Shown piece after piece: positions 9,911-56,596 of a DNA stretch of 64,000 nucleotides. A program made the translations under genes and the position numbers. Where the stretch lies: the NCBI GenBank assembly GCA_035557635.1, contig DATMDR010000061.1, positions 44,730 through 108,729 on the forward strand. Reading direction: 5' to 3'. The stretch comes from Solirubrobacterales bacterium. GTDB lineage: Bacteria > Actinomycetota > Thermoleophilia > Solirubrobacterales > 70-9. The number at the start of each line of letters is the position of its first letter. Position 1 is the stretch's first letter. The notes below the pieces were generated by a model. That model was not told the DNA's origin, did no database searches, and saw nothing but the letters and a program-made list of their open reading frames with translations.

Positions 9911-10114
9911 TCAGACGCGATCGGGAGAGCGAAGCTCGGAAAGGTTGCCGCCCCAGCCAAGTCCCTCCGCTGCCAGCATCTCCTCGCTGCTAATCGACTC
10001 GCCGACAAGCCTGCGCAGGGCGAGATCGACGGCCTCGCGCTTGCTGCGCAATCGGTAGAGACGCATCGCATGATCCACCAACTCGTCGTCGATCTCGATA
10101 CTTGTCCTCGTCAT
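9911..10114 (-). CDS. VapB-family (DUF2191-like) type II antitoxin, no cognate toxin adjacent
   Basis: MTRTSIEIDDELVDHAMRLYRLRSKREAVDLALRRLV matches the VapB antitoxin N-terminal pattern. ATGA overlap with the stop of the upstream hydrolase fragment. Confidence 0.7.
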   Translation of the reverse strand: MTRTSIEIDDELVDHAMRLYRLRSKREAVDLALRRLVGESISSEEMLAAEGLGWGGNLSELRSPDRV

Positions 10115-10923
10115 GCGACCAGCCTAACTTCGAACGCTGGGACGAAGAGGGCGCCGGCGCCGTCCAAGAGGGCGAGGATGCGGCTGACGTATGCCTGCGT
10201 CTCGGGGTAGTCGGGAACGCAGTCGCAAGCTTCGACCGGCGCCGGGCCGGCATTGTAGGCGGCAAGGGCTAGGGAGGGGTCGCCGAACTGGCGCAGCAGG
10301 TCTGACATGAGATGCGCTTGGGCGTCGATCGCTTCGACGGGGTCGAAGGGGTCGAGCAGGCCGTAGGCGGCCGCCGTCGAGGGCATGAACTGGGCGATCC
10401 CCTGAGCACCGGCCGGGGAACCCGCGTTGGGATCGAAGTTCGACTCGGCCATCAACTGGCCGGCGAGCAGGGCGGCGGAGACGTTCCAGCGGGTCGCGGC
10501 GCGCAGCAGCGGCGCCCGGTACTGGACTGGGACGAACGATGGAAGGCCTCCGCTACCTGAGAGCGCGCCGTCTCCCCCACCGCCCGTCACTACGGAGTTG
10601 CCTGCGGCTGAGCAGGGCGCCGGCCCGGCGTCGAACCCATAGTGCCAAGCCTCCCAGGAGTAACGCTGGACGAAGCCGAAGCGGCCGGCGTTGGTCGCGA
10701 GCCAGCCGTAGGCCGTTTCGGGGCCGAGGTCGAGCTCGGTGGCGCAGCGGTGCAGCGATTGGCCCGGCGGTGCGACCCAGCGCGGGTCGGGGTTGGCGGC
10801 GAAGAGCGCCGCCTGCTCGGCGTCGGAGCGGAAGCCGGAACTGACGAGGAGCGTGAGGCCTTCGGACGCCGCGGCAGCCGCCATCCGGTCGAAGGCGGCG
10901 GCGACGTCCGGCCTCATCCCCTC
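10111..10923 (-). pseudogene. 3' portion of a split gene: VanY/M15 D,D-carboxypeptidase domain plus SLT lytic transglycosylase domain
   Basis: VanY-like motifs (SGFRSDAEQAALF, LHRCATELDL). SLT-like motifs (AESNFDPNAGSPAGAQGIAQFMP, AAYNAG). No signal peptide. The frame is closed by a stop only 3 codons upstream of the first Met (10927-10929), at the element junction. Confidence 0.75.
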
Positions 10924-15100: not shown

Positions 15101-18100
15101 CGCAGGGTCCAGTTGTATTTCGTTTCCTTGACACGCTGATCTGCGTCTTTTCCTTCGCCTTTAACGCTTGCGCCAATGGTTTCCCGGGTTGGCAGATGAT
15201 ACTGAGGCGTCCCGGCAGGAGGAGGCGGTGCATTTTCGTCATCGTCATAGTTAATAGTGCGATGCCTTCGCGCCGGAACGACGGCGCCTGATTCCTCCAG
15301 GCGAGTAAGGTGCAACGGCCCCCATTCCTCGCGCAACTCGATGCCATCCGCAGAGAAGAGACGTTTAGTGTCGAGTTCTTCTGAGCGCGTGACCGATTTA
15401 GGGCCTTCCGCTAGGGCGCGTAGGCGGTTTTGAGGGCTGAGTTCACGTACGGTATTACCGTATTCGTCTGTTTCTGCTGTGGTAATTGATGGCCCCGAAG
15501 TTCCAGCGCCGGTTTCCGTGGCGGTATTGACCAGCAGACCTTCAGCATCCATGTAAAAGACGGTCGCGCGGGAGAAGCTACTGGGCGGATTTGCCGGAAC
15601 CTGATCGGGCGGAAACACGGCAGTTGCATCGACAGGAATGTCTTTCTGTCCCCATTTCGCGATGTCGGCAGCGCCCATTTCGTAGGGCGCACCGCTGCCG
15701 CTGATCGGTACCCCGTAGACGACGGTTGTCTGCGCGATGGATGGACTGCTGAGGAGGCTCGGTCGTTTGACGCTCACCAGGCGGCCATTTGCTTTCTCGC
15801 CGTCGTGGGAGCCGTATTCAAACGTCCACGGCTCCTCCCCCGGCGGCGTGATCGATTTGAGCTGCCCTGCTGCCTCGTAGGAGTAGGTCTCTTTAAGCGT
15901 TGGCGAGATCCGAGGGTCCCAAGCTTCGATGAGCCTGCCTTCTGAGTTGTATTTGTAGTTGGCTACCTGCCAGCTTTTCATCGCTGGGGTCGCACCGCTG
16001 CCAACAGCGGCGTGATATGTGATGGAGGCGAGGCGATCCCCGTAAGCTGCGGGGGCCCCCCAATTCGTCGCCGGTGCGTATTGGAACGTAAGCGTGCGAC
16101 ATCCAGGCATTACCGGGGCTTCTTTTTCCGTACATTCGTACGTCGAAGGCCCGATCACCATGATTAGCCGCCGGTTGCTGCCTTCGATTTTGTAAACCAT
16201 CCGCGTATTGTTGGCGCCGCTCCCTGTTTGAGAGACAGAGACTGGCAGATATTCAGTGCCACCGGAACTGTTTTCAAAGATCGTGCGGTTGCCATCGGGG
16301 TCAGTGAGAAAGAACTGATTTTCTTTCTTAGTCAGAAGCCAGCCGGACGCTTCGGGCGGGGAAATATAGCCGCCAGATCCATTTTGTTCGAATGCGTACT
16401 CGTCGCCGTTGAGATGGGTTAGCACAACATAGTTTTCAAGTCCTTCTATTTTTTCTTCTTCCGATACCACAATTTCACGCGCATGTCGCCATTCAGCCCC
16501 TCCTGCCGCTTCGACTGGAATGCCAGATTTCCAGCCACGGCCTAGCAGCCCGGTATCCGATGTTCCGGGATCGCGTGAGTTGTGAGTGCGAGAAAATTCC
16601 AGCGCAGTCTCAAAAACAGGAATTGAAATATCCGTCCTGCTAATGGAAAAATTTCCAGTAAGTAGATTGACAGAACCTGGGCCAACTGAGGCTGCGGCAT
16701 CCTGCGTACCACCCAAGTCGCGGTCAACTTTAGCTTCGACGGGAACGGTGTAGCCGGCAGCTGCGCCAGCACCATCCAATATCGCTCTGACCTGGATCGG
16801 GCCGCCAACTTTTTCAAGCGAGCTAGTTACGTGCGCCGCATCAAAGAAAAGCGGTGGGGTTTTCTGGCTAGCAACAACGGGAAGTGGCCATTTTTTGAGT
16901 TCTTCTCCCTGTGAATCCCGAACCAGACTAATCGGAACCGTTTGGAAGGGGCCTGTTTTCCCCTCCCTAAACTGATAGGTGACACCTGTCACGCCTGTTT
17001 CGGTCCAAGCAGCTTGGAGCTTGAGACGTCGCGCGGTCTGAGTCCCATCAGTTGGAGAAGTGACTTTGCTGGAGCTAGGAGCTTTGTCGTAATAGATAAC
17101 TTCCATGCGGGGCCGCTTGCTGGTGTCGACCGCAGCACTGGAATCGAAAGTCAGCGAGCGTTCTTTGCAAGCCGGCGAGCATTCGAGTTTCGTATCGTCG
17201 AGGAGCTTCAGCATCAAGCCCTGGTTGGGGAATAGAAGGCCGTTAACCCAGTTATCGACTAGGCTCGTCAGCCCAGGCCCGGAGAATTCCCACCAGCCCG
17301 CCTGGCCGCCGCGATCTTTGGTCAGTATCTGCGCGCCTTCGGAGGTGTAGTCGCCGCCGATCAGAGTCCACTTGAAGAGACTGCTGTACCTGTTCCAAAT
17401 CAACGTACTTTCCCAATTCTTTGTTGCCCGGCGGAGCTCGACTCCTTCCGTGTTGACGGCTGTAGCCGGCGCATGGACTTTGACCGCCGCCGCCATTATG
17501 TAGGGCTTTTTGCCGACGCCGTTGAGCGCGCTTAGATCGAACTTCAAGAGAGAGCGTGCCCATTCGTTGACGCCACTTGCCTGACGGTAGCGGGCATATA
17601 GTGCTTTTTGCCCGCCTGGACCACAGAGGCCCCAACCGTTTTTCCCTTCGAACTGTCCGGGGGGTACCCCGGGCGTTTTCGTGCCGCCAAAAGTGCAGTC
17701 GAGACTCGGGCTGTTGAGTTCGAGTGGGGGGTCGAGATGGATCGGCCAAGTCAGGTCTTCGCGCTTGAACCAGTCACCGTCGGCGTCGACCGTCAGTTCC
17801 CAGCTCTGCTCATCTACAGGCTGGAGTTCGTAATAGACGTCACGCGACACGCTCGGCTCGGGCGAGCTGTCGAGCAGCACTGGCGCTGGAATCGTGGCGA
17901 GCGACCGGTCGCTTGTGTCCCGGAACTCGATCGATCCGTCCTCGAGGAGCTTCGGGCTCAGGCCTTCCGACATCTCCAGGGCGAAGCGAAAGACGCGCGG
18001 CTCGGAGGGATCGGCGAGAACGATGTCCTCCTTGAACCCGTTGGCGAGGCTCGTCAGCTCGAACCGGGTGCCGCCGTCGGCGGTTTCGTAGCTCGCAGTG

Positions 18101-18564
18101 GCGCCTCGTACGTCTGCTGGTCTTGAAGGAGAATCCAGGAGGCGGGTCGCTATCCATCCGCCGCCGAAGCTGAGATGAACCGGCCCCTCTCCCATTCGTT
18201 CCGGCAAGGTGAGGTCGAAGGCATTGGGGCCATTGGTGAGGCCGGTGCCGTCGGATTGCTCTGCGAGGTCTTCGCCGATCGGCTTCCAGTCGCCCTCGGC
18301 ATCTCGATAGTGGATCGGGCTCTCGTAGAGGACGGTCCGAAGGGCTCCGCTGGAAAGGCGGAAGGTCTCTGAGGTCGCAGTGCGTCTTGCGTCCAGCTCG
18401 ACGCCGGTTTCTGACTCAGGCGGAGCCTCAAGCCGTTGCGAACTGCTCTCTTCTGGCTCTGCGATCACCTGTCCCGCTGACAGCGCACACAGCAGGATTG
18501 CCAATAGAACCGCCCAGCTCCCACGTCTTACCCCTCGCAGATTCTTCACTCCCCCACCTTTCAA
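12121..18564 (-). CDS. secreted RHS/YD-repeat polymorphic toxin with an internal NHL beta-propeller
   Basis: Signal peptide (WAVLLAILLCALSAGQVIA). Many YD repeats (YDxxGR/YxYDxxxR). Six NHL repeats. RHS-associated core ending YVPAMGRFTSLD...YDYANQDPLNQLDLTG. A 115-aa divergent C-terminal tail. Confidence 0.92.
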   Translation of the reverse strand: MKGGGVKNLRGVRRGSWAVLLAILLCALSAGQVIAEPEESSSQRLEAPPESETGVELDARRTATSETFRLSSGALRTVLYESPIHYRDAEGDWKPIGEDLAEQSDGTGLTNGPNAFDLTLPERMGEGPVHLSFGGGWIATRLLDSPSRPADVRGATASYETADGGTRFELTSLANGFKEDIVLADPSEPRVFRFALEMSEGLSPKLLEDGSIEFRDTSDRSLATIPAPVLLDSSPEPSVSRDVYYELQPVDEQSWELTVDADGDWFKREDLTWPIHLDPPLELNSPSLDCTFGGTKTPGVPPGQFEGKNGWGLCGPGGQKALYARYRQASGVNEWARSLLKFDLSALNGVGKKPYIMAAAVKVHAPATAVNTEGVELRRATKNWESTLIWNRYSSLFKWTLIGGDYTSEGAQILTKDRGGQAGWWEFSGPGLTSLVDNWVNGLLFPNQGLMLKLLDDTKLECSPACKERSLTFDSSAAVDTSKRPRMEVIYYDKAPSSSKVTSPTDGTQTARRLKLQAAWTETGVTGVTYQFREGKTGPFQTVPISLVRDSQGEELKKWPLPVVASQKTPPLFFDAAHVTSSLEKVGGPIQVRAILDGAGAAAGYTVPVEAKVDRDLGGTQDAAASVGPGSVNLLTGNFSISRTDISIPVFETALEFSRTHNSRDPGTSDTGLLGRGWKSGIPVEAAGGAEWRHAREIVVSEEEKIEGLENYVVLTHLNGDEYAFEQNGSGGYISPPEASGWLLTKKENQFFLTDPDGNRTIFENSSGGTEYLPVSVSQTGSGANNTRMVYKIEGSNRRLIMVIGPSTYECTEKEAPVMPGCRTLTFQYAPATNWGAPAAYGDRLASITYHAAVGSGATPAMKSWQVANYKYNSEGRLIEAWDPRISPTLKETYSYEAAGQLKSITPPGEEPWTFEYGSHDGEKANGRLVSVKRPSLLSSPSIAQTTVVYGVPISGSGAPYEMGAADIAKWGQKDIPVDATAVFPPDQVPANPPSSFSRATVFYMDAEGLLVNTATETGAGTSGPSITTAETDEYGNTVRELSPQNRLRALAEGPKSVTRSEELDTKRLFSADGIELREEWGPLHLTRLEESGAVVPARRHRTINYDDDENAPPPPAGTPQYHLPTRETIGASVKGEGKDADQRVKETKYNWTLRLPIDTIVEPEGLKLRTHIEYLPFNTSRLPIERRLPANPNGGDARSTRTVYYGHDPLGPARCYAKPAFTGLPCEVKPAAQPGTAGQPDLLVTYYASYSPLGQPTEVIESPGGTSDPAKTRKTITTYDEAGRTLMVKRLGGGVAVPTTETLYGSATGRPTTQRFVCESECKTSIDYSATYGSSGTGKKEFNHPAGSAFDGQGNLWVVDRLNNRVQKLDSSGNYVFEFGGLGTAKGKLSDPMDIAIDANGDLWVADRGNHRVQKFNTKGEYLDEFGSLGSTDGKFSGYGPRSIGIDAQGELWVSDYSGRVQEFDAEGNFIKAVGSSGSGEGQFGESAGLDVGEGKVWVADWTKHRVSVFSATGKFLFQFGSNGNTDGKFINPDAVEVSKGNVWVLDASNGRVQQFDTEGKYVAKFGAPGSGQGQFSLTWPSGLAADSAGNVWVSDAGNDRIQKWVLSSSYDRQATRTVYDTLGRPISYEDADGNLSSTGYDLLSRPVISSDGKGVQTRTYDPTSGLLVQLNDSAAGTFTATYDADGNLVERDFPNGLTATTTYDETGASVHLAYEKTTNCVSECTWLDFEVERSIHGQWLSQTSALSSQQYSYDKAGRLTLVKDTPQGGSCTTRTYNYDANSNRTALITREPGIEGACDISSKGNVQEYKYDTGDRLLGTEIAYDDFGRITTLPKAFSGGGTLTSTYYSSDLIRSQTQDGITNTYDLDASLRQRQRVQTGTKSGTEIYHYANSTDAPVWIDQGSNWSRTISGIGGELVALHDSAQGTILQLANMHGDIVATASLDPEATKLLATFESDEFGKPKGEAKRYGWLGSHQRRTEFASGIVQMGVRTYVPAMGRFTSLDRVLGGSANSYDYANQDPLNQLDLTGCSTRPREGIVQCLRTCIRRHCTARNVAMKYTKIQHCLAASKGIVSLGSCFADFCNLWDLAVCGFSCITGNGPTMSPPPPNPPPTAAQPHRSPSLKDLLNRVRAQLEETPVLPVSR
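13747..14545 (-). repeat. six tandem NHL-type repeats (coding) inside the RHS ORF
   Basis: GNLWVVDRLNNRVQKLD / GDLWVADRGNHRVQKFN / GELWVSDYSGRVQEFD / GKVWVADWTKHRVSVFS / GNVWVLDASNGRVQQFD / GNVWVSDAGNDRIQKW, spaced about 45 aa apart. Confidence 0.85.
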
Positions 18565-20929: not shown

Positions 20930-23900
20930 TTAGCGGCCGATCCCCAGGTCCCGGCCGAGATCGCGCGCTCTCCCGGCGTGCTGCCCAAGGCCGAGCATGC
21001 GCTGGGTCTCTAGAAGCCGCCGCCGCGTCGCCTCTTGGCGCGCTCGCTCGGCTCCCTGCTTCGCCTCCGCGCCAAACGCTCGGAACGGGTCCTTGATGCC
21101 GTGATCCTGGCGGTAGCGCTCGATCTGCGAGAGGCCGCGATCCCAAGCCTCCCGTTTGACCGGATCGCTCGGCCTCTCCCCCAGCTCGGCCTTCACGTAG
21201 GCGGGTGGGGATATCCGCGCCGCGACGATCGCCAGCTCGCGGCGCTGCGCGAGAACCTGATTGGCGACCGCCAGCTCGCGGCGCGCGGCCCGTCCCGACT
21301 CAGGCAGCTCGCGAATCTCGGCGTCGCGACGCGCGAGCGCATCGCGCCAGTTCTTCTCCAAGGAGTCGATACGTGCCAGCTCCTCGCGGCGCTGGCGACG
21401 CGGCAGCCCCTGCGCCGCCTCGCGCTCGACCTGGATCTGGTCGAGCCGCTTCCGCGCTTCCTCAAACCGCTTCTGCACCATGCGGCGCTGGCTTTCTGCG
21501 TTGGCCTCTCGTCCTGCCGCCACCAGTAGCTCACCGCGCCTTGCGACCAGCTCCTCGGTCGGCAGGCCCGAGAACTTCGAGCGCAGCGCCTCGTCGTGGG
21601 CGGCGACCTGGGCGCGGTCGCGCTCGGCGGCTTCGGCGATGTGCGGGATGCCCTCGCGCAGGTAGGGAGACTCCGGCGCGATCTCCTCGCGGTGGACCTG
21701 TATCTCCGGCGTGGCGTAGATGAACGTCTCCTCGCGGGTGCGCGAGGCGGCGACGTATAGCTCCTGCTTGTCCATCGAAGGGTCGGCGGCGACGAATGCA
21801 CGATCGACGCTCGTGCCCTGTGCCGAGTAGGTGGTGACGGCGTAGGCGTGTTCGAGCGCCGGGGCTTCTGAGTGGCGGTTGGTCTGAGCGAGATAGTCGG
21901 CTCCGACCTCGACCCGCTTTGCCTGGTCGATGCCGTCGAGGGTCATGCGGCGCTCTGCCGCGTCCACCTCGGCAATCCGCCAGCGCTCGCGGTTGAAGAT
22001 CTCGGCGCTGCGGTCGTTGACGCGGGTGATGACGAGATCGCCGGCGGCGAAGCTCGCCTCCCCCACTTCGATCTCCTGGGCTCCGAGCTGCCCGGCCTGG
22101 CGGCGAACCTCGCGCGCCATCTCGTTCAAGCGCCTGACCTCGGCGTTCTGCTTGGCGACCATTACCGCGTCCTCGCCGCGCTCGAACGCCTCGTGCCAGT
22201 CGCGGACCATCGCCTCGCGGCGCTCCTCGGCGTTCGGGGCGACCGTGACCCTCTCGGATGAGCGGTAGAGGCTCAGCGCTTCGCCACCCTCGCCTTCCCT
22301 GATCTGCTTCGCCGCCACGCGGTCGAGCTCGTGGCGGTGGCGGATTACCTCGTCCAGTTGGATCGGGTCGGTGCGCTCGGCAAGAGCGCGGAACAGGCCG
22401 CCCGCTTCGATCTCGCCGAGCTGCTCGGGGTCGCCGACCAGGACGAGCTTCGCCTGGGCTCGCTCGGCGTGGGAGACGAGTCGAGCGAGGGTGGCCGAGT
22501 CCACCATCCCGGCCTCGTCGACCAGGAGGACCGAGCCGTGCGGCAAGCCCTCTTTGCCTTCATGCTCGGCGCGGTCGAGCGCCAAGAGCAGGCTGGCGAT
22601 GCTCGACGCCGGCAGTCCCTCCGCGCGCATCACGTTCGCCGCCCGCCAGGTCGGCGCGGCGGCGCGCAGCTCGATCCCGGCTTCGGCCCAGCCCTCAGCC
22701 GCGGCGACGACGGCGAAGGTCTTGCCGCTGCCCGCCTCGCCGATCACCACGGCGATCCCTTCGGGGTTGATGAGGAGGCGGCGGACCATCTCGCGCTGGT
22801 CGTCCTTCAAGGTCGGGCGTGTGTGAATGACACGGGCCGCGATCAGCTCGCCCGCAGGCGTCGGTCCCTGCGCCCGCATTCGCTCGACCGCCGCCAGCGC
22901 TTCGCGCTCAAGCTCCCAGATGCGCCGGGTGGTGAAGCGGGGGCCTTTGGCAGCCTCGGCGATCTGGATCACCGACTCCGACGCGAGGAAGGCGTCGGCC
23001 AGGCGCTCCACCTCGGCTCCCGGCGCACCGGATGGAAGCGAGTCGGCAACCGCCTGGATCGCGTCTCGCCTGTCGAAGTGGGACGCAGCCGCCGTGACCG
23101 CACGGTCTACCTGCTGGGTAGAGACCGTGCGGCTCACGGCGGCGCTCGGCCTCAGCGCTGCCTCCGGGTCGAAGGTGCGCTCGATCGTCTCGCGGTCAAG
23201 GCCGATCTCATCCGCCCGCGAGCGCCAGCGCCCAAGCAGCTCACCCCGGCTGACGTCTCGCTCCTTCGGCTGGCGCGTGGCAAGCGCGGCGACCTGCATC
23301 GAGCGCGCCGAGGCGTCGGCACCCGCCGCCTCGAGTATTTCCGCGCGACGGGTGGAGAAGGCGCGCAGATGCTCGTCGGCGAAGCCCGCGATCTCGGCGA
23401 TGCCCTTGCGCGTCGGTTGCCACTCGACGCCGAGGCGGCGGGTCAGCTCATGGCGCAAGTGCGCCTCGTAGATGTAGCTGGCGGTCTTGGCGTGGTCGTA
23501 GATCGCCGGGTGGTAGAGGCGGGTCCAGCGCCCGTCCGGTCCCCTAGTCGCGTTGGCGATCAGGACGTGGGTGTGGAGCTGTGGGTCGCCGTTCCGCGAG
23601 GAGCGGTGGACGTAGCCGGCGGCGAGGTAGCCATTGCCCTTGACGAACTCCGAGCCTCCCGCCCCACGCCTCGTCCAGCACGCCTCGCGCTGCATGTAGT
23701 CGAGGGCGGCTCCTACCGCTTCGCGGTGGGCGGCATTGACCTCGATGGCGGCGACCGGTCCGCCCAGGCCCCAGAGCAGGGAGACCGACTTAGGAGCCGA
23801 GAAGGTGAGATCGAAGCCGGGGACCGAGCCGTTGGCGGGGACGCCGCGCATCCCGACCAAGGGCTCGCCGTCGACCGGGCTGCGCCCGGTCAGCATCGCT

Positions 23901-24070
23901 TCGAGCTGGGCCGCCTCGACCTCCCCAGAGAGACCCAGATCCTCGGCGGCGTCGCCGAGCCATTGCCCGGCGACCTCGCCCTCGCCGGAGTAGTAGTCCT
24001 CAGCGCCTTCGGCGACCTTGTCGAGGTAGTAGCGCTCCTGGCCTTTGCCGAGCTTGCCGATGGAAAGCAT
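20930..24070 (-). CDS. MobF/TrwC-type conjugative relaxase fused to a RecD/TraA-like helicase
   Basis: N-terminus MLSIGKLGKGQERYYLD (catalytic Tyr region). His triad GDPQLHTHVLIAN. Helicase Walker A GEAGSGKT and LLVDEAGM. Start taken at ATG 24070; the track ORF extends to 24118. Confidence 0.9.
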   Translation of the reverse strand: MLSIGKLGKGQERYYLDKVAEGAEDYYSGEGEVAGQWLGDAAEDLGLSGEVEAAQLEAMLTGRSPVDGEPLVGMRGVPANGSVPGFDLTFSAPKSVSLLWGLGGPVAAIEVNAAHREAVGAALDYMQREACWTRRGAGGSEFVKGNGYLAAGYVHRSSRNGDPQLHTHVLIANATRGPDGRWTRLYHPAIYDHAKTASYIYEAHLRHELTRRLGVEWQPTRKGIAEIAGFADEHLRAFSTRRAEILEAAGADASARSMQVAALATRQPKERDVSRGELLGRWRSRADEIGLDRETIERTFDPEAALRPSAAVSRTVSTQQVDRAVTAAASHFDRRDAIQAVADSLPSGAPGAEVERLADAFLASESVIQIAEAAKGPRFTTRRIWELEREALAAVERMRAQGPTPAGELIAARVIHTRPTLKDDQREMVRRLLINPEGIAVVIGEAGSGKTFAVVAAAEGWAEAGIELRAAAPTWRAANVMRAEGLPASSIASLLLALDRAEHEGKEGLPHGSVLLVDEAGMVDSATLARLVSHAERAQAKLVLVGDPEQLGEIEAGGLFRALAERTDPIQLDEVIRHRHELDRVAAKQIREGEGGEALSLYRSSERVTVAPNAEERREAMVRDWHEAFERGEDAVMVAKQNAEVRRLNEMAREVRRQAGQLGAQEIEVGEASFAAGDLVITRVNDRSAEIFNRERWRIAEVDAAERRMTLDGIDQAKRVEVGADYLAQTNRHSEAPALEHAYAVTTYSAQGTSVDRAFVAADPSMDKQELYVAASRTREETFIYATPEIQVHREEIAPESPYLREGIPHIAEAAERDRAQVAAHDEALRSKFSGLPTEELVARRGELLVAAGREANAESQRRMVQKRFEEARKRLDQIQVEREAAQGLPRRQRREELARIDSLEKNWRDALARRDAEIRELPESGRAARRELAVANQVLAQRRELAIVAARISPPAYVKAELGERPSDPVKREAWDRGLSQIERYRQDHGIKDPFRAFGAEAKQGAERARQEATRRRLLETQRMLGLGQHAGRARDLGRDLGIGR

Positions 24071-24717
24071 CACCCTCTCTGTCCAGCGGGAGCGCGTTTT
24101 GCCTCGCACACTTAACAAAGTGATAGGGCGTGAGGGTGGTTGCTGTTGGCTGTTGGTACCGGGGCTGGAGCTTTCTCAGGGCTGCTTCTGCTGCCCCTGA
24201 GAACTGGGCTTCCTGCCTGATTCCTTCCTTTGTCTTTGTGGTTTGGCTTTGGCTGGCTGGTTGATTGGCTGCGTTTGGCTGGTTGAGTTCATCAGCCTGG
24301 GGAGGCCGACTTCGCAAAGTCCGGCGCTGGGGGGAGAGAAGCGCCGCCAGCCGGGCTAGCCTTTTTCTATGACCACCATGAAGGTGGTTAGTTAGGAGGA
24401 ATTTGGACACTTCACGATGGAAGACCAGAGAGGCATAAGAGACCATGACCGGCCACGCAAGCGAATGGCTTGCGGTGGGCCTGACCCCTTTCGTTCTCGC
24501 CGGGGCCGTGATGGCTGCGCTGTGCTTGATCGCACTTCTGCGGCGCACCCCATTCGAGGGCGAGCTTCGGGTCTTCTGGCTCCTTTGCCTAAAGCTGCGA
24601 ACGCAGCCGCCGAGGGACGACGCCTGAAGGTGTCGTTAATCTCGGGTCCGCCAGCGAAGCTGGCTGAGGATCTCATCTCTAGCGCTTGCCGGATGCCCTA
24701 GATCGGCCTGGCAGGTA

Positions 24718-24756
24718 GTCGCGCAGAGGGCTGCCGCCCTGGCAGCCCTCTGCGAC
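24718..24756. other. strong GC-rich hairpin in the relaxase/NTase intergenic region
   Basis: CGCAGAGGGCTGCC (24722-24735), loop GCCCT, GGCAGCCCTCTGCG (24741-24754): a perfect 14-bp stem. Confidence 0.6.
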
Positions 24757-25077
24757 TCGTTCTCTGGACGTAGGAAAACCCCGGGGCGTTGAGGCGACCT
24801 GCGCCGACACGATCTCGGAATCCGAAGTCGAGCACGGGATGGGCGGCACAGCGGCCTCCGTCCCTCGCTGCCCGAAGGTCCGTCAACAGCGATCTATAGA
24901 ACTCCGGGCGTCGTCCTCGTATCGCTTGTGGGCCGGGCGGGGGGTTCATCGCCTCCGTCCGGCCTCAAAGTACCCGCCGACGGGCTTGCAATCATCGTCT
25001 CGAGCCGATTGGGGGGGTGATGTCTCCTGAGAAGACCGGCTCGCCGATATGAGGCCGATTAAGAAAGCAGGTTCTAA

Positions 25078-26142
25078 ATGTTTCAGGAGGCGAAGGCCGA
25101 AAAGGCCAGCGATGTAGAAGCAGTTCTCGACGAAGTCCGCATCGAGATCTCCGCCAACGACGATGATCTCCGAGAGACGCGGAAGCGCCGTGATCTCGTC
25201 CGCGACGCTGCCGAATCGTTCGTGGGGGTTCTCCGGACCTTCAACTCGGGATCGGTCGCACACGGGACCGCCAACAACCCGGTCGACGACGCGGACGGGG
25301 GAGCCGTCCTCAACCGCGTCTCTTACCCCGATCTCGGTCCCGATAGCGACGAGGAAGGCGGCCCCGACGACCTGATGCGGGAGATGCGCGACCACGTCAT
25401 GGCGATCGTCCGGAAGGACTACCCGAAGGCCCGCAGTCGGCTGACGAAGAGGGCGATCCTGATCGAGTTCCACAAGCCGAACTCGGACGGCGTCGATCCA
25501 TCGGTCGACCTCGTTGTCGCGCTGACGCGGAAGGACGCTGTCGGCCTCTGGATCCCGAACCGGGACCGCGACGAATGGAACGCCTCCCACCCGGAGGAGC
25601 ACACCCGGCTCCTGGTCGCGAAGCCGAAGGGCCTCCGCGTTCTCCGCGCCCGGGTTATCCGCCTGTCGAAGGCCGCGATAAAGAAGGACTCGACTCCGGC
25701 GCTGATCTCGTTCAACGTCGAGGCCCTCGCCCTCAAGATCGTCGACGACGAGAACGAAGGGCTCGCCGAGGCGCTCCAGCGCTTCTTCGATGTCGCGGCG
25801 GACGAGATCAAGGCCCGCTATACGGAAGACCCGGCCGGGGTCTCGGGGAGAATCAAACTCCCCGAAGGGATGACCCGGTCCCGCTCCTCCCGGCGGCTTC
25901 GCTTCTTCGCCGACAAGGTCCAAGAGGCGATCGACGCCGAGTCTCGGGAGGACGCCGAAGCCGCGCTCGCTGAGCTGTACCCGGACGAGTTGCCGGGCAC
26001 CCCGAAGTCGAGCAAGAAGAGCCTCGCCGAGGCGCTCAACGCCGGAGACGAGAAGCGCGTCCGGACTGCGGCCTCGGTCGCACCGGCCGCAGCGTTCAAG
26101 CCTGGGATGAGGTCCCACGGCGATGACCCGGACGCGGCGTAA
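25078..26142 (+). CDS. Pol-beta superfamily nucleotidyltransferase, CD-NTase/SMODS-like
   Basis: G58-S59 (FNSGSVAHGT), D71-x-D73 (PVDDADGG), D144 (PSVDLVVAL), then W..SHPEEH and RVIRLSK helices. Low-complexity tail of about 50 aa. Confidence 0.7.
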   Translation: MFQEAKAEKASDVEAVLDEVRIEISANDDDLRETRKRRDLVRDAAESFVGVLRTFNSGSVAHGTANNPVDDADGGAVLNRVSYPDLGPDSDEEGGPDDLMREMRDHVMAIVRKDYPKARSRLTKRAILIEFHKPNSDGVDPSVDLVVALTRKDAVGLWIPNRDRDEWNASHPEEHTRLLVAKPKGLRVLRARVIRLSKAAIKKDSTPALISFNVEALALKIVDDENEGLAEALQRFFDVAADEIKARYTEDPAGVSGRIKLPEGMTRSRSSRRLRFFADKVQEAIDAESREDAEAALAELYPDELPGTPKSSKKSLAEALNAGDEKRVRTAASVAPAAAFKPGMRSHGDDPDAA

Positions 26143-26599
26143 ACCGCCCTGGTACCAGCACTTTCCGACGCGGCTTCGCTTCGAGCGCGAGGCCCGGGCC
26201 GCCTACCCCCACATCTCTATGCGAGAGGTAGGCGCTCGGAAGCGCTCGGAGGTCGCCTATGGGTTGAAGATCCCGGTCCCTGAGTACGAGGACCGGAGCA
26301 TCGAACTCGTGTTCCCCCGGATGATCGCGAGGCCGGAATTCACCCGCGTCTACGCCGACGGGCCGACCGAATCCCCGCATCGGTACCGGGCGAGCGAGCG
26401 GGATAAGCAGGGGCGATCCTCGCTCTGTATCTGGGATCCCGACGATCCACCGGAACTTCGCTGGGTCCCGGAGGACGGTCTCCTCTCGCTGATCGAGATG
26501 ACCCGGCTCCACCTCTTCAAGGAGGCGTACTGGCGGGAGACCGGCGACTGGCCGGGCGCGGAGGCCCCGCACCCAACGGCGGAGCCAAAGCCTTGCTGA
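26123..26599 (+). CDS. stand-alone E2/UBC-like protein (putative catalytic Cys102)
   Basis: 20-nt overlap with the NTase gene. Its order of elements mimics the UBC fold: N-terminal helix (RLRFEREARAAYP), beta-strands (VAYGLKIPVP..RSIELVFP), SPHRY flap (HPN-like), SSLCIWDP (Cys, TGT 26426-26428), then W and the helix LLSLIEMTRLHLFKE. Confidence 0.6.
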   Translation: MTRTRRKPPWYQHFPTRLRFEREARAAYPHISMREVGARKRSEVAYGLKIPVPEYEDRSIELVFPRMIARPEFTRVYADGPTESPHRYRASERDKQGRSSLCIWDPDDPPELRWVPEDGLLSLIEMTRLHLFKEAYWRETGDWPGAEAPHPTAEPKPC

Positions 26600-27174
26600 C
26601 CGCTGTCGCCCATGCCGCCTCGGAGGGGGGCGGCGAAGGTTTGAAGGTTGTCCTCCCTCTGATCGGTTCGGCGATCGCCCTCGTCGGGGTTCTCATCACC
26701 CTCTACGTCAATGGCCGCCGGGCCGAGCGAACTCGTCGGCGGGACCTCTACTCCGCGGGTTGGGCCGCAGTCCAGGCGTACAAGGAGTTCGCCTTCGCGG
26801 TTCGGCGCCGGAACTCGGAGGATCGTGCCGGGGAGCGGGTCCGCATCTCGACGGCGATGGGTGAGGTCCAGAAGGAACTCGCCTACTACGAGGCGATGAT
26901 CGGGCAGGAGCGCGTGAGTGAGTTCATCGCCGCGGTAACTGGCCGGGATCTCCGCGGTGCTGTCGCCGACGCCTACCTGACCCTCGTCGCCGAGACTCGG
27001 AAGGTCGCCGGGGGGATCATCAAACTTTCCTGGAACGAGGAGCCGATCGGAGCGGACAGCGAAATGCACGCCCCCGAGATCGCTCAGGAGCTGGCGGTGC
27101 TCAAGCCGGTCGAGATGGCCTTCCTCGACACGGTCTCCGACGACGTCGGCGGGCGTCGGCCGGACGCCGGTTAG
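26593..27174 (+). CDS. single-pass membrane protein of unknown function (candidate effector)
   Basis: TTG start overlaps the E2 gene by 7 nt (alternative TTG near 26641 after GGAGGGGGG). TM helix VVLPLIGSAIALVGVLITLYV, then about 150 aa of charged helical sequence. Confidence 0.6.
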   Translation: MLTAVAHAASEGGGEGLKVVLPLIGSAIALVGVLITLYVNGRRAERTRRRDLYSAGWAAVQAYKEFAFAVRRRNSEDRAGERVRISTAMGEVQKELAYYEAMIGQERVSEFIAAVTGRDLRGAVADAYLTLVAETRKVAGGIIKLSWNEEPIGADSEMHAPEIAQELAVLKPVEMAFLDTVSDDVGGRRPDAG

Positions 27175-27448
27175 GTCCGACCCCGAGAGCGACGTAATGA
27201 TCGACTGAGCCGGGGCTAGTTCAACCCCTCGGCCCAAGAGGGTCATCGTGCACTTCGCGCCCGGTTTGCCGACAGGTATTGCTGCAAACAAATAACAGTG
27301 GGGGGACGTGCCCGACGCGGACAAATGAGCGGGGGGCGATAACCGGGCTTTCCTGACTTATTTCGATGCAATGCGCGGTTTTCGCGGACAAGGGGATTGA
27401 GGAACATGACCCTGAAATCCCCGGCATCCGCCGCAAACCCGCCTATCA

Positions 27449-27554
27449 CCCGGGCAGTGAGCCCGGCCATACCTGGCGGCAGATGCTCAAGCCCGAGCAA
27501 AGATGCCCGGGCAGAGCTTTCTCGCCCGGGCTATCGTAAGAGCGACGCCCGGGC
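27449..27554. promoter_or_regulatory. cluster of four CCCGGGC palindrome-containing sites upstream of the RHH/recombinase genes
   Basis: CCCGGGC at 27449-55, 27506-12, 27525-31 and 27548-54. Confidence 0.4.
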
Positions 27555-27699
27555 TTACCTGGGCCGAGATGCCGGGGCTCTTTCCAATGCAAGCGCCTGG
27601 CCGGCCGCCCCCCTACGGCCCCCCACAAGGGGGCGCACCCCGGCGCAGGGCTGCGCCCTCTTCACAAGCGCGGCGGACTGCTCTAGAACCGGGAGCTAG

Positions 27700-27966
27700 A
27701 TGCCCGCCGAGAGCCCAAAGCCGACCGCAGCATTCGCAAACCCTTGCATCGAGATCACGCCAACGCCGAAGCAGTACGAACGGCTCTGCCTCGATCTCAG
27801 GAAGCTTCGCGAGCGTGGCGCGACCTCCAACACCGACGCGATCCTCGCCGCCGTTCGAGATGCCGCCGCCCGCCGTAAGATGCCTGGCGACAAAGCAAAA
27901 GCCGGGCGGCGCGGTAACGCCCCCGGCACGGCACCAGGAGGTTCCCCTGATGCAAGAGCAGCGTAG
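27700..27966 (+). CDS. small putative ribbon-helix-helix protein (regulator/RDF candidate)
   Basis: GGGAG sits 6 nt upstream of the ATG. CIEITPTPKQYERL (strand) plus helices LRKLRERG...AILAAVRDAA. Overlaps the recombinase start by 17 nt. Confidence 0.45.
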   Translation: MPAESPKPTAAFANPCIEITPTPKQYERLCLDLRKLRERGATSNTDAILAAVRDAAARRKMPGDKAKAGRRGNAPGTAPGGSPDARAA

Positions 27967-29572
27967 CCAGCAGGCCGTTATCTACGCAGCGAAGTCCACC
28001 GAGGACAAGCACGGCAGCATCCCCGATCAGCTCGTCAAGAACCGGCGACTGGCCGACAGAGAAGACTGGTCAGTAGCCGACGAATTTTCGGACGAGGGTT
28101 TCTCCGCCTACAGCGGCAATCGAGGGCCGGGCTTGGAGGAAGCCAAGGCGCTCGCAATTGAACTCGCCGAGCTACACGGCGAGTGCTTTCTTGTCGCTCT
28201 TCACAGCGACCGGGTTGCCCGTGGAGCTGGCGACGCTCCCGGCGCCGCCGATCATCTTGTTGAGGTCGTCGCCCACTTGCGCCGCCACGGCGTGCGGCTC
28301 CGTACGGTCGAGGACGACTTCTTTGCCGACGATCGCATCGGGCTTCTCATGGCCGCAGTCCAGGGACAGCGCAACAGCGAGGACAGTCGTCGCAAGTCCG
28401 AGTCGGTTAGAGCTGGAATGAAGCGACGCGCAGAGCGCGGCTTGTTCAGCGGCCCGGCTCCTTATGGATATGACTACGCGAGCGACGGTAGCGGCCTGGT
28501 GATCGTAGATGCCGAGGCCATCGTGGTACGTCGAATCTTCACGGAGTATGTCGCGGGGCGCAGCCTGTCTGGAATCGCAGTCGGCTTGCACCGCGACGGA
28601 GTCAAGACCAAGAAAGGCTCCCTCTGGCGACAGTCAACGGTCTCAGGCATCGTTCGGAATCACGCCTACATCGGCAAGGTGACTTACCAGCGCGAAGCTT
28701 TCGATGGAGTCCATGAGCCAATCATCGACTCCGAGCTTTGGGAGCAAGCATCGCAGCTCATCGCGGCCACTCCGACTAAGCGCGGCAGACCCCCGAAGCG
28801 GAAGCGCCACCTCTTCACGCACGGATTCCTCCGGTGCGGAACCTGCGGGGAGGCGATGGTCCCGCGTACCCGGCCGGAAAGCGGCTACGAGTTCTACGAA
28901 TGCAATGGGCGAAAGCTGCACGACTGCAAAGTCGGCGCAATCAGGAGAACCGACATAGACGAAGGAGTGCTCGCGCACTTCGAGCAAACGACGCTCGACC
29001 TTGAAGCTACGCGCGCGCAGATCGTCGCCGCTATGGATCGCAATGCGACCGAGGTCGAAGCCCTGCAAGTCGCCGCAGAGCAGGAGGCACAGAAGGCAGC
29101 AGCGCGCCTCGCCAAGGTGAAGCACGATTACACCCACGGCGATCTAACGGCTGCCGAGTGGCGCGAACTAAAGTCAGAGCTTGAGCCCGAAGCCGCCGCC
29201 GCCCAGGCCGAGGCAGATCGCCTGAAAGAGCAGGTTGCCGCCGTCAAATCAAGCGCTGCACTCGGCGATGCCGAATCCGAGGTTCTAGACCAGTTGGCGC
29301 AGCTCCGCGCCGCAGTTGCCGGGAAGGTATCGGCAGCAGACAGCATCGAAGCCGTCAGGGCCGTTCTGATGCGGCTCTTTGACCGATTCATTTTCCATTC
29401 CGAGCTTCCCGCAACTGCGCACGTCGAGCTAATCGGCTATCGCTATTGGATCGAGCCAGTGATGAGCGAGCGAGCCATCGCCGGCTACGACGAGAAGATG
29501 AAGCCGGTCCTAGCGCGCCAGCCGCTTGGGCAAGCCAAAAACAATTACGGCGTCGGCTCCCCGCCGCGGTAG
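27950..29572 (+). CDS. large serine recombinase (integrase)
   Basis: AGGAGG lies 8 nt upstream of ATG 27950. Resolvase catalytic domain AVIYAAKSTEDKHGSIPDQ. Recombinase domain, Cys-rich zinc-ribbon region (CGTCG...C..C) and coiled-coil C-terminus. The last 4-5 codons and the stop lie beyond the predicted crossover. Confidence 0.9.
   Translation: MQEQRSQQAVIYAAKSTEDKHGSIPDQLVKNRRLADREDWSVADEFSDEGFSAYSGNRGPGLEEAKALAIELAELHGECFLVALHSDRVARGAGDAPGAADHLVEVVAHLRRHGVRLRTVEDDFFADDRIGLLMAAVQGQRNSEDSRRKSESVRAGMKRRAERGLFSGPAPYGYDYASDGSGLVIVDAEAIVVRRIFTEYVAGRSLSGIAVGLHRDGVKTKKGSLWRQSTVSGIVRNHAYIGKVTYQREAFDGVHEPIIDSELWEQASQLIAATPTKRGRPPKRKRHLFTHGFLRCGTCGEAMVPRTRPESGYEFYECNGRKLHDCKVGAIRRTDIDEGVLAHFEQTTLDLEATRAQIVAAMDRNATEVEALQVAAEQEAQKAAARLAKVKHDYTHGDLTAAEWRELKSELEPEAAAAQAEADRLKEQVAAVKSSAALGDAESEVLDQLAQLRAAVAGKVSAADSIEAVRAVLMRLFDRFIFHSELPATAHVELIGYRYWIEPVMSERAIAGYDEKMKPVLARQPLGQAKNNYGVGSPPR
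29528..29565. other. attR-like junction of the integrated element
   Basis: Element arm CCAAAAACAATTACGGCGTCGG, then CTC (29557-29559), then the host coding sequence resumes (CCC GCC GCG GTA = G G R Y on the minus strand). Confidence 0.6.
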
Positions 29573-31259: not shown

Positions 31260-32261
31260 TCACCGCGCCCGCACCGACGCGACGGTTTCGCGCAGCGTCC
31301 CGCGAGCGTCGTGGTGCGGCATCCAGTGCAGCTCGCCGCGCGCCTTCGCGGTGTCCATTAGGACCGGGCGGCGGACCGCCTCGATCCAGGCCGCCTCATC
31401 AGGCAGGAACGGCATCAGCGCCACCGCCTCGGCGGCGGCGCCGACCGCCAGTTGCGAGGCGGGAACCGGCACTGCGTGCCAGCCGAGCTCGTGGGCGAGG
31501 TCGGAGATCGTCAGCCGCCCCGGGCCCGCCAGGTTGTAGACGCCGGGATCGCCGTGCCCCAGGACGGCGGCGCAGAGCGCCGTGGCGACGTCGTCGTGGT
31601 GGACGAGTTGGAAGGGCACGCCGGGGTCCGGCAGGACAGGACGCAGCTCCGGCACCTTGCCGAGCGCCCAGCGCAGCGGGCTGGGGATGCGCTGCCCCAT
31701 GGCCAGCAGGGGGATCACGTCTAGCAGCATCGTCGCCTGCGGGCCGGCGACGATGCAGGGGCGAAAGACGTAGGCGTCGGTGGCGGAGCCGTCGAGCGCC
31801 TCCGCCAGCTCCTCCTCGACCGCGGCCTTGTGCGCCGAGTAGGGGTGCCGCGCGGTCCCCTGCACCGGCTCGTCCTCGCTGAGCAGCTCGGGCATGCCAC
31901 GGCGGAAGCCGTAGGCGGCGACCGACGAGGTGTAGACGAGGCGCTTGGCACCCGCCGCCGCGGTGGCCTCGAAGACGTTGCGCGAGCCGCGCAGGTTGAT
32001 CTCGCGGCTCTCGTCGCCGCCGGCGACGATCACGAAGGCGAGGTGGACGACCACATCGGCCTCGTCGACCAGGTCCTCGACCGCCTCGCGATCGAGGACG
32101 TCGCCGCGCCGGTACTCGGTCTTCTCCCAGCCCTGCCCGGCGAGGTCGAATGGGCGCCGGGCCATCCCGATCACCCGATCCACTTCCGGCAGCCGCTCGA
32201 GCGCCGAGATGAAGGCCTTGCCGATCTCCCCGGTGGGGCCGGTGACTGCGACGGTCAGCAC
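31260..32261 (-). CDS. NAD-dependent epimerase/dehydratase family protein
   Basis: VTGPTGEIG Rossmann motif and YSAHK catalytic motif. 333 aa. Confidence 0.85.
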   Translation of the reverse strand: MLTVAVTGPTGEIGKAFISALERLPEVDRVIGMARRPFDLAGQGWEKTEYRRGDVLDREAVEDLVDEADVVVHLAFVIVAGGDESREINLRGSRNVFEATAAAGAKRLVYTSSVAAYGFRRGMPELLSEDEPVQGTARHPYSAHKAAVEEELAEALDGSATDAYVFRPCIVAGPQATMLLDVIPLLAMGQRIPSPLRWALGKVPELRPVLPDPGVPFQLVHHDDVATALCAAVLGHGDPGVYNLAGPGRLTISDLAHELGWHAVPVPASQLAVGAAAEAVALMPFLPDEAAWIEAVRRPVLMDTAKARGELHWMPHHDARGTLRETVASVRAR

Positions 32262-32656
32262 ACGACGATCTCTATCAAGTCCTCGAGTCCGCGGAGGTCC
32301 TTGGCGTTGCGGGCGTAGAGAGGGAGCTCGTTTGCCAAGGCGGTTGCGGCGATCATCAGGTCGACGATGCGAGCACCGCGTGCCCTACGGCCCGCCGCCG
32401 TCACCGCTGCATAGACCTGGCTGTGCGCGCGAGCGCAGCGTGAGTCAAAGAACAGCGTCTCAACACCTGCCTCGAAGATCTGCAGGCGTCGCTCCCGGCG
32501 GGCTCGCTCGATGTCATCCGAAGCGGCAAGCGGGCCGACGGTGAGCTCGGCCAGCGTCAGGGTCGAGATGGCCGCCTCTTCGGGAATTTGGTCGGGATCG
32601 ATCTCTCCGAGGGCGATGACGACGGACGTATCGAGCAGGCCCCGATCGTCGGACAG
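32255..32656 (-). CDS. PIN-domain toxin (VapC-like); start uncertain
   Basis: LLDTSVVIAL...TLAEL...IAATALANELPLYARNAKD PIN pattern. No ATG/GTG/TTG near the expected start. The upstream part of the track ORF is Ser/Arg-rich out-of-context sequence. Confidence 0.7.
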   Translation of the reverse strand: MSDDRGLLDTSVVIALGEIDPDQIPEEAAISTLTLAELTVGPLAASDDIERARRERRLQIFEAGVETLFFDSRCARAHSQVYAAVTAAGRRARGARIVDLMIAATALANELPLYARNAKDLRGLEDLIEIVVC

Positions 32657-32657
32657 C

Positions 32658-32918
32658 TCAGTAGCGAGGCGTAGGGTCCTGGTCGACGAAAGCGTCGATA
32701 TCTGCGCGGAACTTCTCGTAGTCGATGTGCGGCGCGCCCTCGAAGAGGACGAGGAGCTCCTCCTTCGGGATGAACTTCCGCTTGCGGCGCTGGATCGGCA
32801 GCAGTTCACCGACTGGCTTGCCGTCGCGAGTGATGACGAAGTCCTCCCCGTCATCGAGGGCGCGCATGACCTCACCACTCTTGTTGCGCAGTTCGCGCTG
32901 AGTCAGTTTCCGAGTCAT
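32658..32918 (-). CDS. Phd/YefM-family antitoxin
   Basis: MTRKLTQRELRNKSGEVMRALDDGEDFVITRDGKPVGELLP is a typical Phd/YefM N-terminus. Lies directly upstream of the PIN gene. Confidence 0.8.
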   Translation of the reverse strand: MTRKLTQRELRNKSGEVMRALDDGEDFVITRDGKPVGELLPIQRRKRKFIPKEELLVLFEGAPHIDYEKFRADIDAFVDQDPTPRY

Positions 32919-33522
32919 CTGAGCCACCGTAGCATTCGTGTTTGTTGACGACAAGACATTTCGCACAGTACTTCGGAAGCCCACCATGCGTGGGCGTCGG
33001 CAACACCCCAAACAGCGCTCGACGCGCCGGGACCCAGGCCAGCGGTCGCTTGAGGACCGCTACGCGAAGGCCTCGTTCGAGCAGGTCGCGAACGGCCAGC
33101 CCGGTCAGGGGGCGGTCGCTGGCGAGATCGGCCCTGAGCAATGCGCCGGTTGCCTCGATGCGAGGCTCGGCCAGCGTCGGCTGCAGCAGCGCCGGCGGCA
33201 GGTGGACGACCGCGATGGACTCGCGGACGAGCGGCAGCGCCGCCGGCAGTCGCTCGAGGCCTTCCTCGCCGGCAGGAAGCGTCAAGTGGCAGGTCTGACC
33301 GCGCGAGGCCGCGCGCGTCTCCGGCATGTGGACGGCAAGCCGCTCCTCGAGCCCGCGTGCTCCCGTCGATGCGACCAGGGTGGGGCGCGGCGGACGCCCA
33401 CCGACATCGACCAGGAGGCCCGGCAGGTCCGGCTCCGAGCCGGCGCAGGCGAGTGCCGCCGCAGCCGCCTTCGAGCCGCTCGCCTCCCCAATCCAGGTGA
33501 CCAGAACCACCGTTCCGTTCAC
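32872..33522 (-). CDS. hypothetical protein in the Tad-like neighbourhood
   Basis: 216 aa, 4-nt overlap with the upstream TadE-like gene. No motif recognised. Its 3' end overlaps the antitoxin start by 47 nt. Confidence 0.45.
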   Translation of the reverse strand: MNGTVVLVTWIGEASGSKAAAAALACAGSEPDLPGLLVDVGGRPPRPTLVASTGARGLEERLAVHMPETRAASRGQTCHLTLPAGEEGLERLPAALPLVRESIAVVHLPPALLQPTLAEPRIEATGALLRADLASDRPLTGLAVRDLLERGLRVAVLKRPLAWVPARRALFGVLPTPTHGGLPKYCAKCLVVNKHECYGGSDDSETDSARTAQQEW

Positions 33523-56168: not shown

Positions 56169-56402
56169 ATGACTCCGATCGATCCAGGCAGTGCTCGGGA
56201 GTTCCTAGAATCGATCATCGCCGCTTTTTCCGTTCTCGGCGGCGGCATGGCGTGTTTCAGCGGCTACTACGCGGCTCAAGCCCTCGCTCAACGGCAACCG
56301 CCTGAATTCGTCGCTCAGCGCATCAACGAAGGCCTTGGCGAGGGATTCAAATGGGTATCCCCGTTTTCGATCGTCGCTCTTATCATTGTGGTGTGGACCT
56401 GA
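56169..56402 (+). CDS. small membrane protein
   Basis: 77 aa with two hydrophobic segments. TGATG overlap with the next small ORF. Confidence 0.4.
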   Translation: MTPIDPGSAREFLESIIAAFSVLGGGMACFSGYYAAQALAQRQPPEFVAQRINEGLGEGFKWVSPFSIVALIIVVWT

Positions 56403-56587
56403 TGGAACGAGTAGTTCGAGCCCCGTGGGGAGCATTCGGCGTTGGCACCGCTACAGCCATACTCACAGCCATTGCGATCCTTGCCCTTGGCGCACCCGCA
56501 TGGATCCTCGTTCCCGTCATATGGGTTGGAGCGGCAACTTACGCCGAGATGAGCTCCCGGGTCAACCGTCGGCTCGGTCGCTGGTAG
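56402..56587 (+). CDS. small membrane protein
   Basis: 61 aa with helices GVGTATAILTAIAILALGA and WILVPVIWVGAA. Coupled to the previous ORF. Confidence 0.4.
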   Translation: MERVVRAPWGAFGVGTATAILTAIAILALGAPAWILVPVIWVGAATYAEMSSRVNRRLGRW

Positions 56588-56596
56588 CTATCGCCG

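Follow-up and report, generated by a model that had tools for sequence, protein, structure and literature searches.

Systems of phage defence that signal through cyclic oligonucleotides (CBASS) and in which an oligonucleotide cyclase is accompanied by a stand-alone E2-like protein, without a ubiquitin-activating (E1) enzyme or a JAB peptidase, have been counted in 616 operons (Yan et al., preprint, bioRxiv 10.1101/2022.05.25.493364; published, according to PMC12991175, as Nat Microbiol 9:1566, 2024). Here we describe an operon of this kind at bases 25078-27174 of a 64,000-nucleotide stretch of a Solirubrobacterales bacterium (assembly GCA_035557635.1, contig DATMDR010000061.1, positions 44,730 to 108,729 of the forward strand), which as a whole is called the window below and to which all positions refer. 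The closest known system is that of Serratia marcescens (CdnG-E2; PDB 8HSB/8YJY/9KKB; Yan et al. 2024; Xiao et al., mLife 2026, PMC12948482), the purified cyclase and E2 of which link covalently with no cofactor, the link being abolished by the substitutions C101A and H87A in the E2 (SmE2) and G406V/L in the cyclase. SmE2 removes E407 after Gly406 of the cyclase, or a fused MBP or GFP, and the resulting Gly406-Cys101 thioester interconverts with a Gly406-Lys159 isopeptide, His152 being needed for the conversion; the E2-linked cyclase is inhibited, and poly-cyclase chains, which appear on T4 infection, are active (bioRxiv 10.1101/2022.05.25.493364; PMC12948482).

Canonical type II CBASS (Cap2 and Cap3; E. 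cloacae Cap2-CdnD02, PDB 7TO3, and V. cholerae; PMC10097602, Ledvina et al. 2023) served as a second comparison system. It shares with the window operon a CdnD-like cyclase structure and, on the mechanism proposed below, the use of the cyclase C-terminus as a ubiquitin-like moiety conjugated through an E2-type cysteine, but there the E1 domain of Cap2 adenylates a free C-terminal Gly/Ala with ATP and Cap3 reverses the bond, whereas the window has neither protein and its conserved glycine is not C-terminal. Two other candidates for comparison were set aside: CmaABC of M. abscessus, a possible closest characterised relative among actinobacteria, relies on an E1-E2 protein (Cap2) and has a patatin as its effector, and is not comparable, and the activation of CdnG by a phage protease (PMC12991175) concerns an internal loop and neither the tail nor the E2.

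The operon and its distribution

Three tightly coupled open reading frames (ORFs), a CBASS cyclase that is a nucleotidyltransferase of the cGAS/DncV-like (CD-NTase) kind, an E2 and a membrane effector, occupy 25078-27174 on the + strand:

25078..26142, + strand: CD-NTase, CBASS oligonucleotide cyclase, 354 aa (PADLOC model Cyclase PDLC00777, E=3.8e-99; Pfam SMODS)
26123..26599, + strand: stand-alone CBASS E2, 158 aa (PADLOC model E2 PDLC00867, E=7.6e-35)
26593..27174, + strand: single-pass membrane effector, 193 aa (PADLOC model Effector '1TM' PDLC00666, E=3.4e-18)

Gene content, gene order and family membership follow directly from these sequence analyses, and we consider it probable that bases 25078-27174 constitute a three-gene E2-CBASS anti-phage operon, of the class also called 'type II short' CBASS, acting by E1-independent chemistry like that of Serratia. 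All three proteins are named hypothetical in the public record, where the protein identical to the window E2 is VNO20_09075 of a Solirubrobacterales metagenome-assembled genome (MAG), likewise a 'hypothetical protein'. The cyclase and E2 genes share 20 nt and the E2 and effector genes 7 nt, the start of the effector ORF (TTG 26593) having been assigned mechanically by the ORF listing. The E2 start codon (ATG 26123) lies 1 nt past the codon of cyclase residue Gly348 (GGC 26119-26121), and the 20-nt overlap, within 26119-26142, encodes in one frame the predicted leaving peptide of the cyclase, DDPDAA, and in the other the N-terminus of the E2, MTRTRR. No promoter or terminator signal above background was found on scanning 24000-28000. 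An antisense ORF at 26350-27324 was flagged by a crude codon-bias filter but dismissed as a shadow, since the E2 and effector genes of the + strand have strong hidden Markov model (HMM) support.

Near its N-terminus the effector has a single hydrophobic helix (approximately residues 19-41, nt ~26647-26715), where the Kyte-Doolittle profile peaks at residue 19 with a value of 2.58; the rest is helical and cytoplasmic, and its 1TM family matches no Pfam domain. Members of the family (the window and loci L001-L051) carry a juxtamembrane motif of approximately N-G-x-R-x-E-R-x-R...L-Y-x-x-A-x-x-A-V-x-x-Y-K-E-F-x-[FY]-x-[IV]-R-R-R.

The E2 is carried by 45 genomes, most of them Solirubrobacterales, with further hosts among Mycobacterium, Mycolicibacterium, Arthrobacter, Micromonospora, Actinomycetospora, Nocardioides, Iamia and the Dehalococcoidia. 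The order cyclase-E2-1TM, with stop codons that overlap the next start, is met again in Actinomycetota, in Dehalococcoidia and in metagenome contigs with unrelated flanks: almost every locus with sufficient flank has a homologous cyclase ahead of the E2, and a homologous 1TM ORF directly follows it in 49 of 52 loci. On the single chromosome of a Dehalococcoidia MAG (OZ220720.1) there are two distant cyclase-E2-1TM modules (L031 and L033). At six loci (L010, L016, L029, L040, L045 and L049) the upstream cyclase is broken into at least two frames, the result either of gene decay or of faulty assembly.

The E2 protein

An earlier note on this DNA had described the second gene as encoding an E2-like enzyme with a putative catalytic Cys102 placed 16 residues after an HPN-like SPHRY motif and followed by W104, W114 and a helix, and on checking, all of these details proved correct. 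The residues on which the argument below depends are encoded as follows:

26378-26380 (CAT), + strand: His86, predicted catalytic, in the SPHRY motif
26426-26428 (TGT), + strand: Cys102, predicted catalytic cysteine
26570-26572, + strand: His150, predicted catalytic, in the C-terminal loop
26588-26590, + strand: Lys156, predicted catalytic (acceptor) residue
26594-26596, + strand: Cys158, final residue of the protein

PADLOC model PDLC00867 covers the E2 over its full length, seven more PADLOC E2 models match it too, and six PADLOC E2 models match both it and SmE2. There are 126 close homologues and 469 representatives at 50% identity. The Pfam family PF26395 'E2-CBASS' is precomputed, and marked weak, on the identical public protein and on homologues; in our local Pfam copy, which is without PF26395, the E2 matched no family with E up to 1 or 10. 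We attribute this to the library version and do not count it as evidence against membership of E2-CBASS, because the S. marcescens E2 fragment was also unmatched there; the canonical E2 family UQ_con and the Prok-E2 families were likewise without a match.

Conservation was examined in an alignment of 46 close E2 homologues (A1) and, more broadly, in 57 representatives whose mean column identity is 26%. W10, H86, C102, W114, H130, E134 and W143, among others, are invariant in the former, where H150 is conserved in at least 90% of sequences; in the latter H86, C102, W114, L123, E134 and W143 are still invariant. Cys102 and His86 are without a single substitution in either set, which supports the catalytic role that the note had proposed for the cysteine. 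After His150 a lysine stands at +3 to +9 in most homologues, though at a position that varies.

The AlphaFold2 model of the E2 (mean predicted local distance difference test score, pLDDT, 88.5; predicted template modelling score 0.84) consists of a helix (14-27), four strands (32-36, 43-50, 58-65 and 75-78), a long loop bearing Cys102, a second helix (120-140) and a flexible tail. This confident model has the order alpha1, four strands, Cys loop, alpha2, like that of ubiquitin-conjugating (UBC) enzymes. In a Foldseek search the top match was the ubiquitin E2 variant (UEV) domain of TSG101 (7zlx_J; probability 0.97, template modelling score 0.46, E=0.079), and RWD domains stood at ranks 2, 4, 8 and 37, the UEV and RWD folds both being UBC-related; such weak matches are compatible with the E2 assignment without being proof of it. 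Searches of the PDB with the single E2 (phmmer) and with the profile of the close family A1 (hmmsearch) returned no relevant match. A broad E2 profile (A4) gave five PDB matches, the best of them 8hsb_B, the S. marcescens CBASS E2 (E=0.067), with ubiquitin-conjugating enzymes at ranks 2 and 5; 8hsb_B and both of these enzymes align to the profile His to His and Cys to Cys. In a comparison with 8hsb_B by hhalign (probability 66%, E=5.8e-5), H86 pairs with H87, C102 with C101 and W143 with W146, as they do in the profile alignment, where H150 comes to lie within one residue of SmE2 H152. Given the weak Foldseek statistics, the verdict of a UBC-like fold rests on the topology of the model and the profile match to 8hsb_B. 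Taken with the HMM matches, the order of elements in the model, the UEV match and the 8hsb_B match support the earlier view of the protein as a UBC/E2-like enzyme.

Compared with the eukaryotic UBC and UEV proteins (UbcH5B, 4AUQ; TSG101 UEV, 7ZLX), the window E2 shares the core of alpha1, four beta-strands, loop and alpha2 and a site with His followed by Cys (HxY...C aligning with HTHVY...C in 2h2y and 2fo3), but has no asparagine of the HPN motif, no alpha3/alpha4 and no E1 or E3 involved; as SmE2 has been modelled, its histidine serves as a general base of the protease type, unlike in a eukaryotic E2.

The cyclase and its C-terminal tail

The catalytic residues G58, S59, D71, D73 and D144 of the cyclase are invariant in an alignment of 53 sequences (A3), and its AlphaFold2 model (pLDDT 89.5) has a confident core at residues 9-300. 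The best Foldseek matches of this model are the CdnD structures of P. aeruginosa (6p82/6p8u/6p8j, E ~1e-14), followed by CdnB and CdnC, and the PDB profile matches likewise place the cyclase near CdnD. Past residue 300 the monomer model shows two short low-confidence helices (312-321 and 325-334), no strands, and disorder from residue 336 onwards. The features of the tail are:

26083..26142, + strand: residues 336-354 of the cyclase, its disordered C-terminal tail, pLDDT <50
26119-26121 (GGC), + strand: Gly348, predicted cleavage and conjugation site

The tail, which the earlier note had rightly taken to be long and flexible, reads ...TAASVAPAAAFKPGMRSHGDDPDAA and contains the motif K341-x-x-x-R-S-H-G348, after which the terminal hexapeptide DDPDAA is predicted to leave. 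In A3, Gly348 does not vary and K341 is kept in at least 90% of sequences; more widely, ~110 homologues and 36 non-redundant genomic loci show K-x-x-R-[SA]-[YFHW]-G with a further 1-16 residues, not conserved, behind it. The sole exception seen is locus L011 (a Solirubrobacteraceae MAG), whose cyclase ends ...TTPSYSDAGR and has Ser where the Gly would stand. The search that gave the E2 representatives also returned in-frame cyclase-E2 fusions (P0281, P0282, P0293, P0345 and P0380; 483-495 aa), and these carry R-[AS]-Y-G(-G) at the junction, which is consistent with self-processing at the glycine. Positions 445-537 of the PADLOC 'Cyclase' model PDLC00816 are matched by the S. marcescens E2 fragment (E=1.3e-12), this model having evidently been built from cyclase-E2 fusions.

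The conserved glycine, never terminal and in the fusions internal, fits a reaction that begins with cleavage and not the adenylation of a free carboxylate, and the invariance of Gly348 together with the retention of the motif in the fusions supports the cyclase tail as the candidate substrate of the E2, as had been suggested beforehand.

Search for an E1 and a JAB peptidase

A PADLOC scan of 53 other ORFs of the window, complete for E < ~1e-6, found no E1, JAB, Cap2 or Cap3 model. Motif scans of the window found no ThiF glycine loop, and Pfam scans of the flanks gave a relaxase, a recombinase, an RHS protein, helix-turn-helix (HTH) proteins and a methyltransferase, none of which is an E1 or a JAB protein. 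A JAMM-like string at 56209-56607, the sole match of its kind, was rejected as non-coding (G+C content at third codon positions of 0.59, junk translation). The E2 itself has no E1 domain within its 158 residues and the operon consists of exactly three genes; at the related loci the neighbours vary from place to place and neither an E1 nor a JAB protein recurs among them. The statement that neither is encoded in the window, made in the earlier note, therefore agrees with the PADLOC, Pfam and motif scans alike.

Proposed mechanism and alternative explanations

For this locus we infer every chemical step, and with it the choice of acceptor lysine, the product of the cyclase and the way in which the effector acts, from remote homology and conservation, the model being the S. 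marcescens CdnG-E2 system. The E2 would bind the disordered C-terminal tail of the cyclase, and the pair Cys102/His86 would attack the peptide bond after Gly348, releasing DDPDAA and leaving a Gly348-Cys102 thioester. The energy would come from the cleaved peptide bond, in the manner of a transpeptidation, so that an adenylating E1, ATP and a JAB peptidase of its own could all be dispensed with. A functional analogy is offered by sortase-type transpeptidases, which have an unrelated fold and in which Cys and His cleave near the C-terminus of a substrate to form an acyl-thioester that is then passed to an amine acceptor, without ATP. The thioester would then be parked as an isopeptide on a lysine of the flexible C-terminal loop of the E2, probably Lys156, by which the cyclase would be kept inhibited. 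On infection, His150 would help the bond return to Cys102, and the cyclase would be moved onto lysines of other cyclases, the poly-cyclase chains so formed switching on nucleotide synthesis; the nucleotide signal would in turn activate the membrane effector and the infected cell would be killed.

Several likenesses join the operon to the S. marcescens system: a stand-alone E2 of ~160 aa adjoining a CD-NTase, both E1 and JAB being absent; the same order of structural elements, with a flexible C-terminal loop in place of alpha3/alpha4 (PMC12948482); matching positions of the His...Cys pair (86/102 in the window E2 and 87/101 in SmE2), with a putative loop His and acceptor Lys at roughly corresponding places (150/156 and 152/159, K156 lying 6 residues past H150 and K159 lying 7 past H152); a cyclase that ends in an aromatic residue, glycine and a removable stub (Y405-G406-E407 in Serratia); and a membrane-targeted effector. 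The differences concern the cyclase (354 aa and CdnD-like, vs 407 aa and clade G), the leaving peptide (6 residues vs 1), the effector (a 193-aa 1TM protein vs 2TM-SAVED), the exonuclease gene of the S. marcescens system, which the window operon is without, the hosts (Actinomycetota and Chloroflexota vs Proteobacteria), and the docking motif and the terminal cysteine of the E2 subfamily taken up below, and we regard them as lineage features of a known kind of system and not as marks of a new kind.

A number of observations nevertheless weigh against E1-independent chemistry of the Serratia type. Likeness to SmE2, the sole characterised E2 of the class, is remote (E=0.067 for the profile search of the PDB and 66% by hhalign), all Foldseek E-values exceed 0.07 and 8hsb_B is not among the 50 best Foldseek matches. 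The cyclase is CdnD-like and not of clade G, S. marcescens CdnG being only at rank 48 among the structures nearest to its model, and the position of the acceptor lysine is not conserved among E2 homologues. Finally, the helix and three-stranded sheet reported to recruit the E2 in E2-CBASS cyclases (PMC12948482) are not predicted at the C-terminus of the cyclase, which in an AlphaFold2 monomer is a weak negative. It is conceivable that a docking motif in the cyclase folds only on binding of the E2. The helix-and-sheet motif is known from examples of clades G and H and stands outside the original definition of the class.

Two deviations from this scheme are conceivable, both unlikely. In the first, the thioester is formed as described and the final acceptor differs, being either lysines of host or phage proteins, as has been proposed for Cap2, or the terminal Cys158. 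The variable position of the lysine in the E2 tail and the lack of a predicted ubiquitin-like docking motif in the cyclase would agree with it, as would a peculiarity of the subfamily to which the window E2 belongs: its members end in K-x-C-COOH (Cys158 in the window; homologues P0001-P0058), and this ending goes together with an insertion of ~8 residues between His and Cys, being present in 45 of 61 long-insert sequences and in none of the 54 short-insert ones, so that Cys158 may be a second reactive thiol. Nothing direct favours another acceptor, however, the only characterised system using Lys159 of the E2 and cyclase-cyclase chains, and 16 long-insert homologues do not have the terminal cysteine. 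In the second, which we judge equally improbable, the operon is a variant of E2-CBASS in which the CdnD-like cyclase is recognised by its tail only and the insertion and Cys158 provide a second thiol, giving a redox-sensitive or thiol-relayed resting state in place of the lysine isopeptide; Cys158 could here be an alternative thioester acceptor or form a disulfide lock on Cys102.

Charging of a conventional E2 by a ThiF/MoeB-like E1, with a peptidase also encoded elsewhere in the genome, as a split or reduced system of the Cap2/Cap3 type, appears very unlikely. MoeB/ThiF paralogues are usual in bacteria, and our search covered 64 kb of the genome only; moreover, classical type II CBASS works via an E1-E2 fusion (PMC10097602). 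Against this, the module is always the same three genes and no more, set among neighbours that are unrelated, in the 45 genomes from two phyla; in the window it lies on what looks like a mobile island, and dependence on a host E1 is therefore unlikely; the conserved glycine, being never C-terminal and in fusions internal, makes a processing step obligatory, and SmE2 performs that step itself without ATP (bioRxiv 10.1101/2022.05.25.493364).

The earlier note had left a choice between a mechanistically distinct E1-independent reaction, an option that the published mechanism of E2-CBASS supports (bioRxiv 10.1101/2022.05.25.493364; PMC12948482), and an E2 fold recruited for a non-catalytic regulatory role, which the invariance of His86 and Cys102 disfavours. 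The latter, as a UEV-like pseudo-enzyme that only binds the cyclase tail and gates activity sterically, is most improbable, for although the UEV domain that Foldseek ranks first has no catalytic activity and SPHRY is without the canonical asparagine of HPN, Cys102 and His86 remain invariant where mean column identity has fallen to 26%, and Gly348 is invariant before a non-conserved stub, both of which point to chemistry rather than to binding alone, and the equivalent Cys and His are needed for linkage and defence in S. marcescens (bioRxiv 10.1101/2022.05.25.493364).

Genomic surroundings

The region ~7500-29600 has a G+C content of 0.57-0.67, compared with ~0.70 in its flanks, and looks like an integrative mobile element bearing the CBASS operon. 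Its other recognisable genes are:

10111-10917, - strand: SLT/VanY cell-wall hydrolase
12121-18564, - strand: protein of 2147 aa; DUF6531 domain, RHS and NHL repeats (Pfam)
20930-24118, - strand: TrwC relaxase (Pfam)
27503-29572, + strand: large serine recombinase (Pfam), with the resolvase domain from residue 158 and the true start probably later

The 2147-aa RHS/NHL protein is probably a polymorphic toxin; its C-terminal ~120 residues are Cys-rich and match no Pfam family at E<=0.001. The relaxase and the recombinase flank the operon, and the region also contains a methyltransferase and two ArsR-type HTH genes. Tad pilus genes are found farther out, and at 32255-33011 on the - strand two overlapping small ORFs resemble, by eye, a VapC (PIN) toxin and an antitoxin of the Phd/YefM type.

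Conclusions

In conclusion, the window operon is a further example of an already established class, and since its architecture is that of the E2-CBASS family (PF26395) and the mechanism of the class has already been solved, its novelty is low and the novelty implied by the earlier note does not hold. How an E2 works without an E1 or a deubiquitinase is a real question, but one already answered for the class, in which the E2 is its own protease and ligase by use of peptide-bond energy. The locus would gain in importance if the absent docking motif or the C-terminal cysteine were to alter this chemistry.

As it stands, the locus is a clean and so far unannotated example of E2-CBASS, which widens the range of the class to Dehalococcoidia and to Actinomycetota, soil Solirubrobacterales among them, in a form whose cyclase is CdnD-like and whose effector is a small 1TM protein, and which lends comparative support to the mechanism through the invariant internal glycine, the variable leaving peptide and the fusions that retain the cleavage motif.

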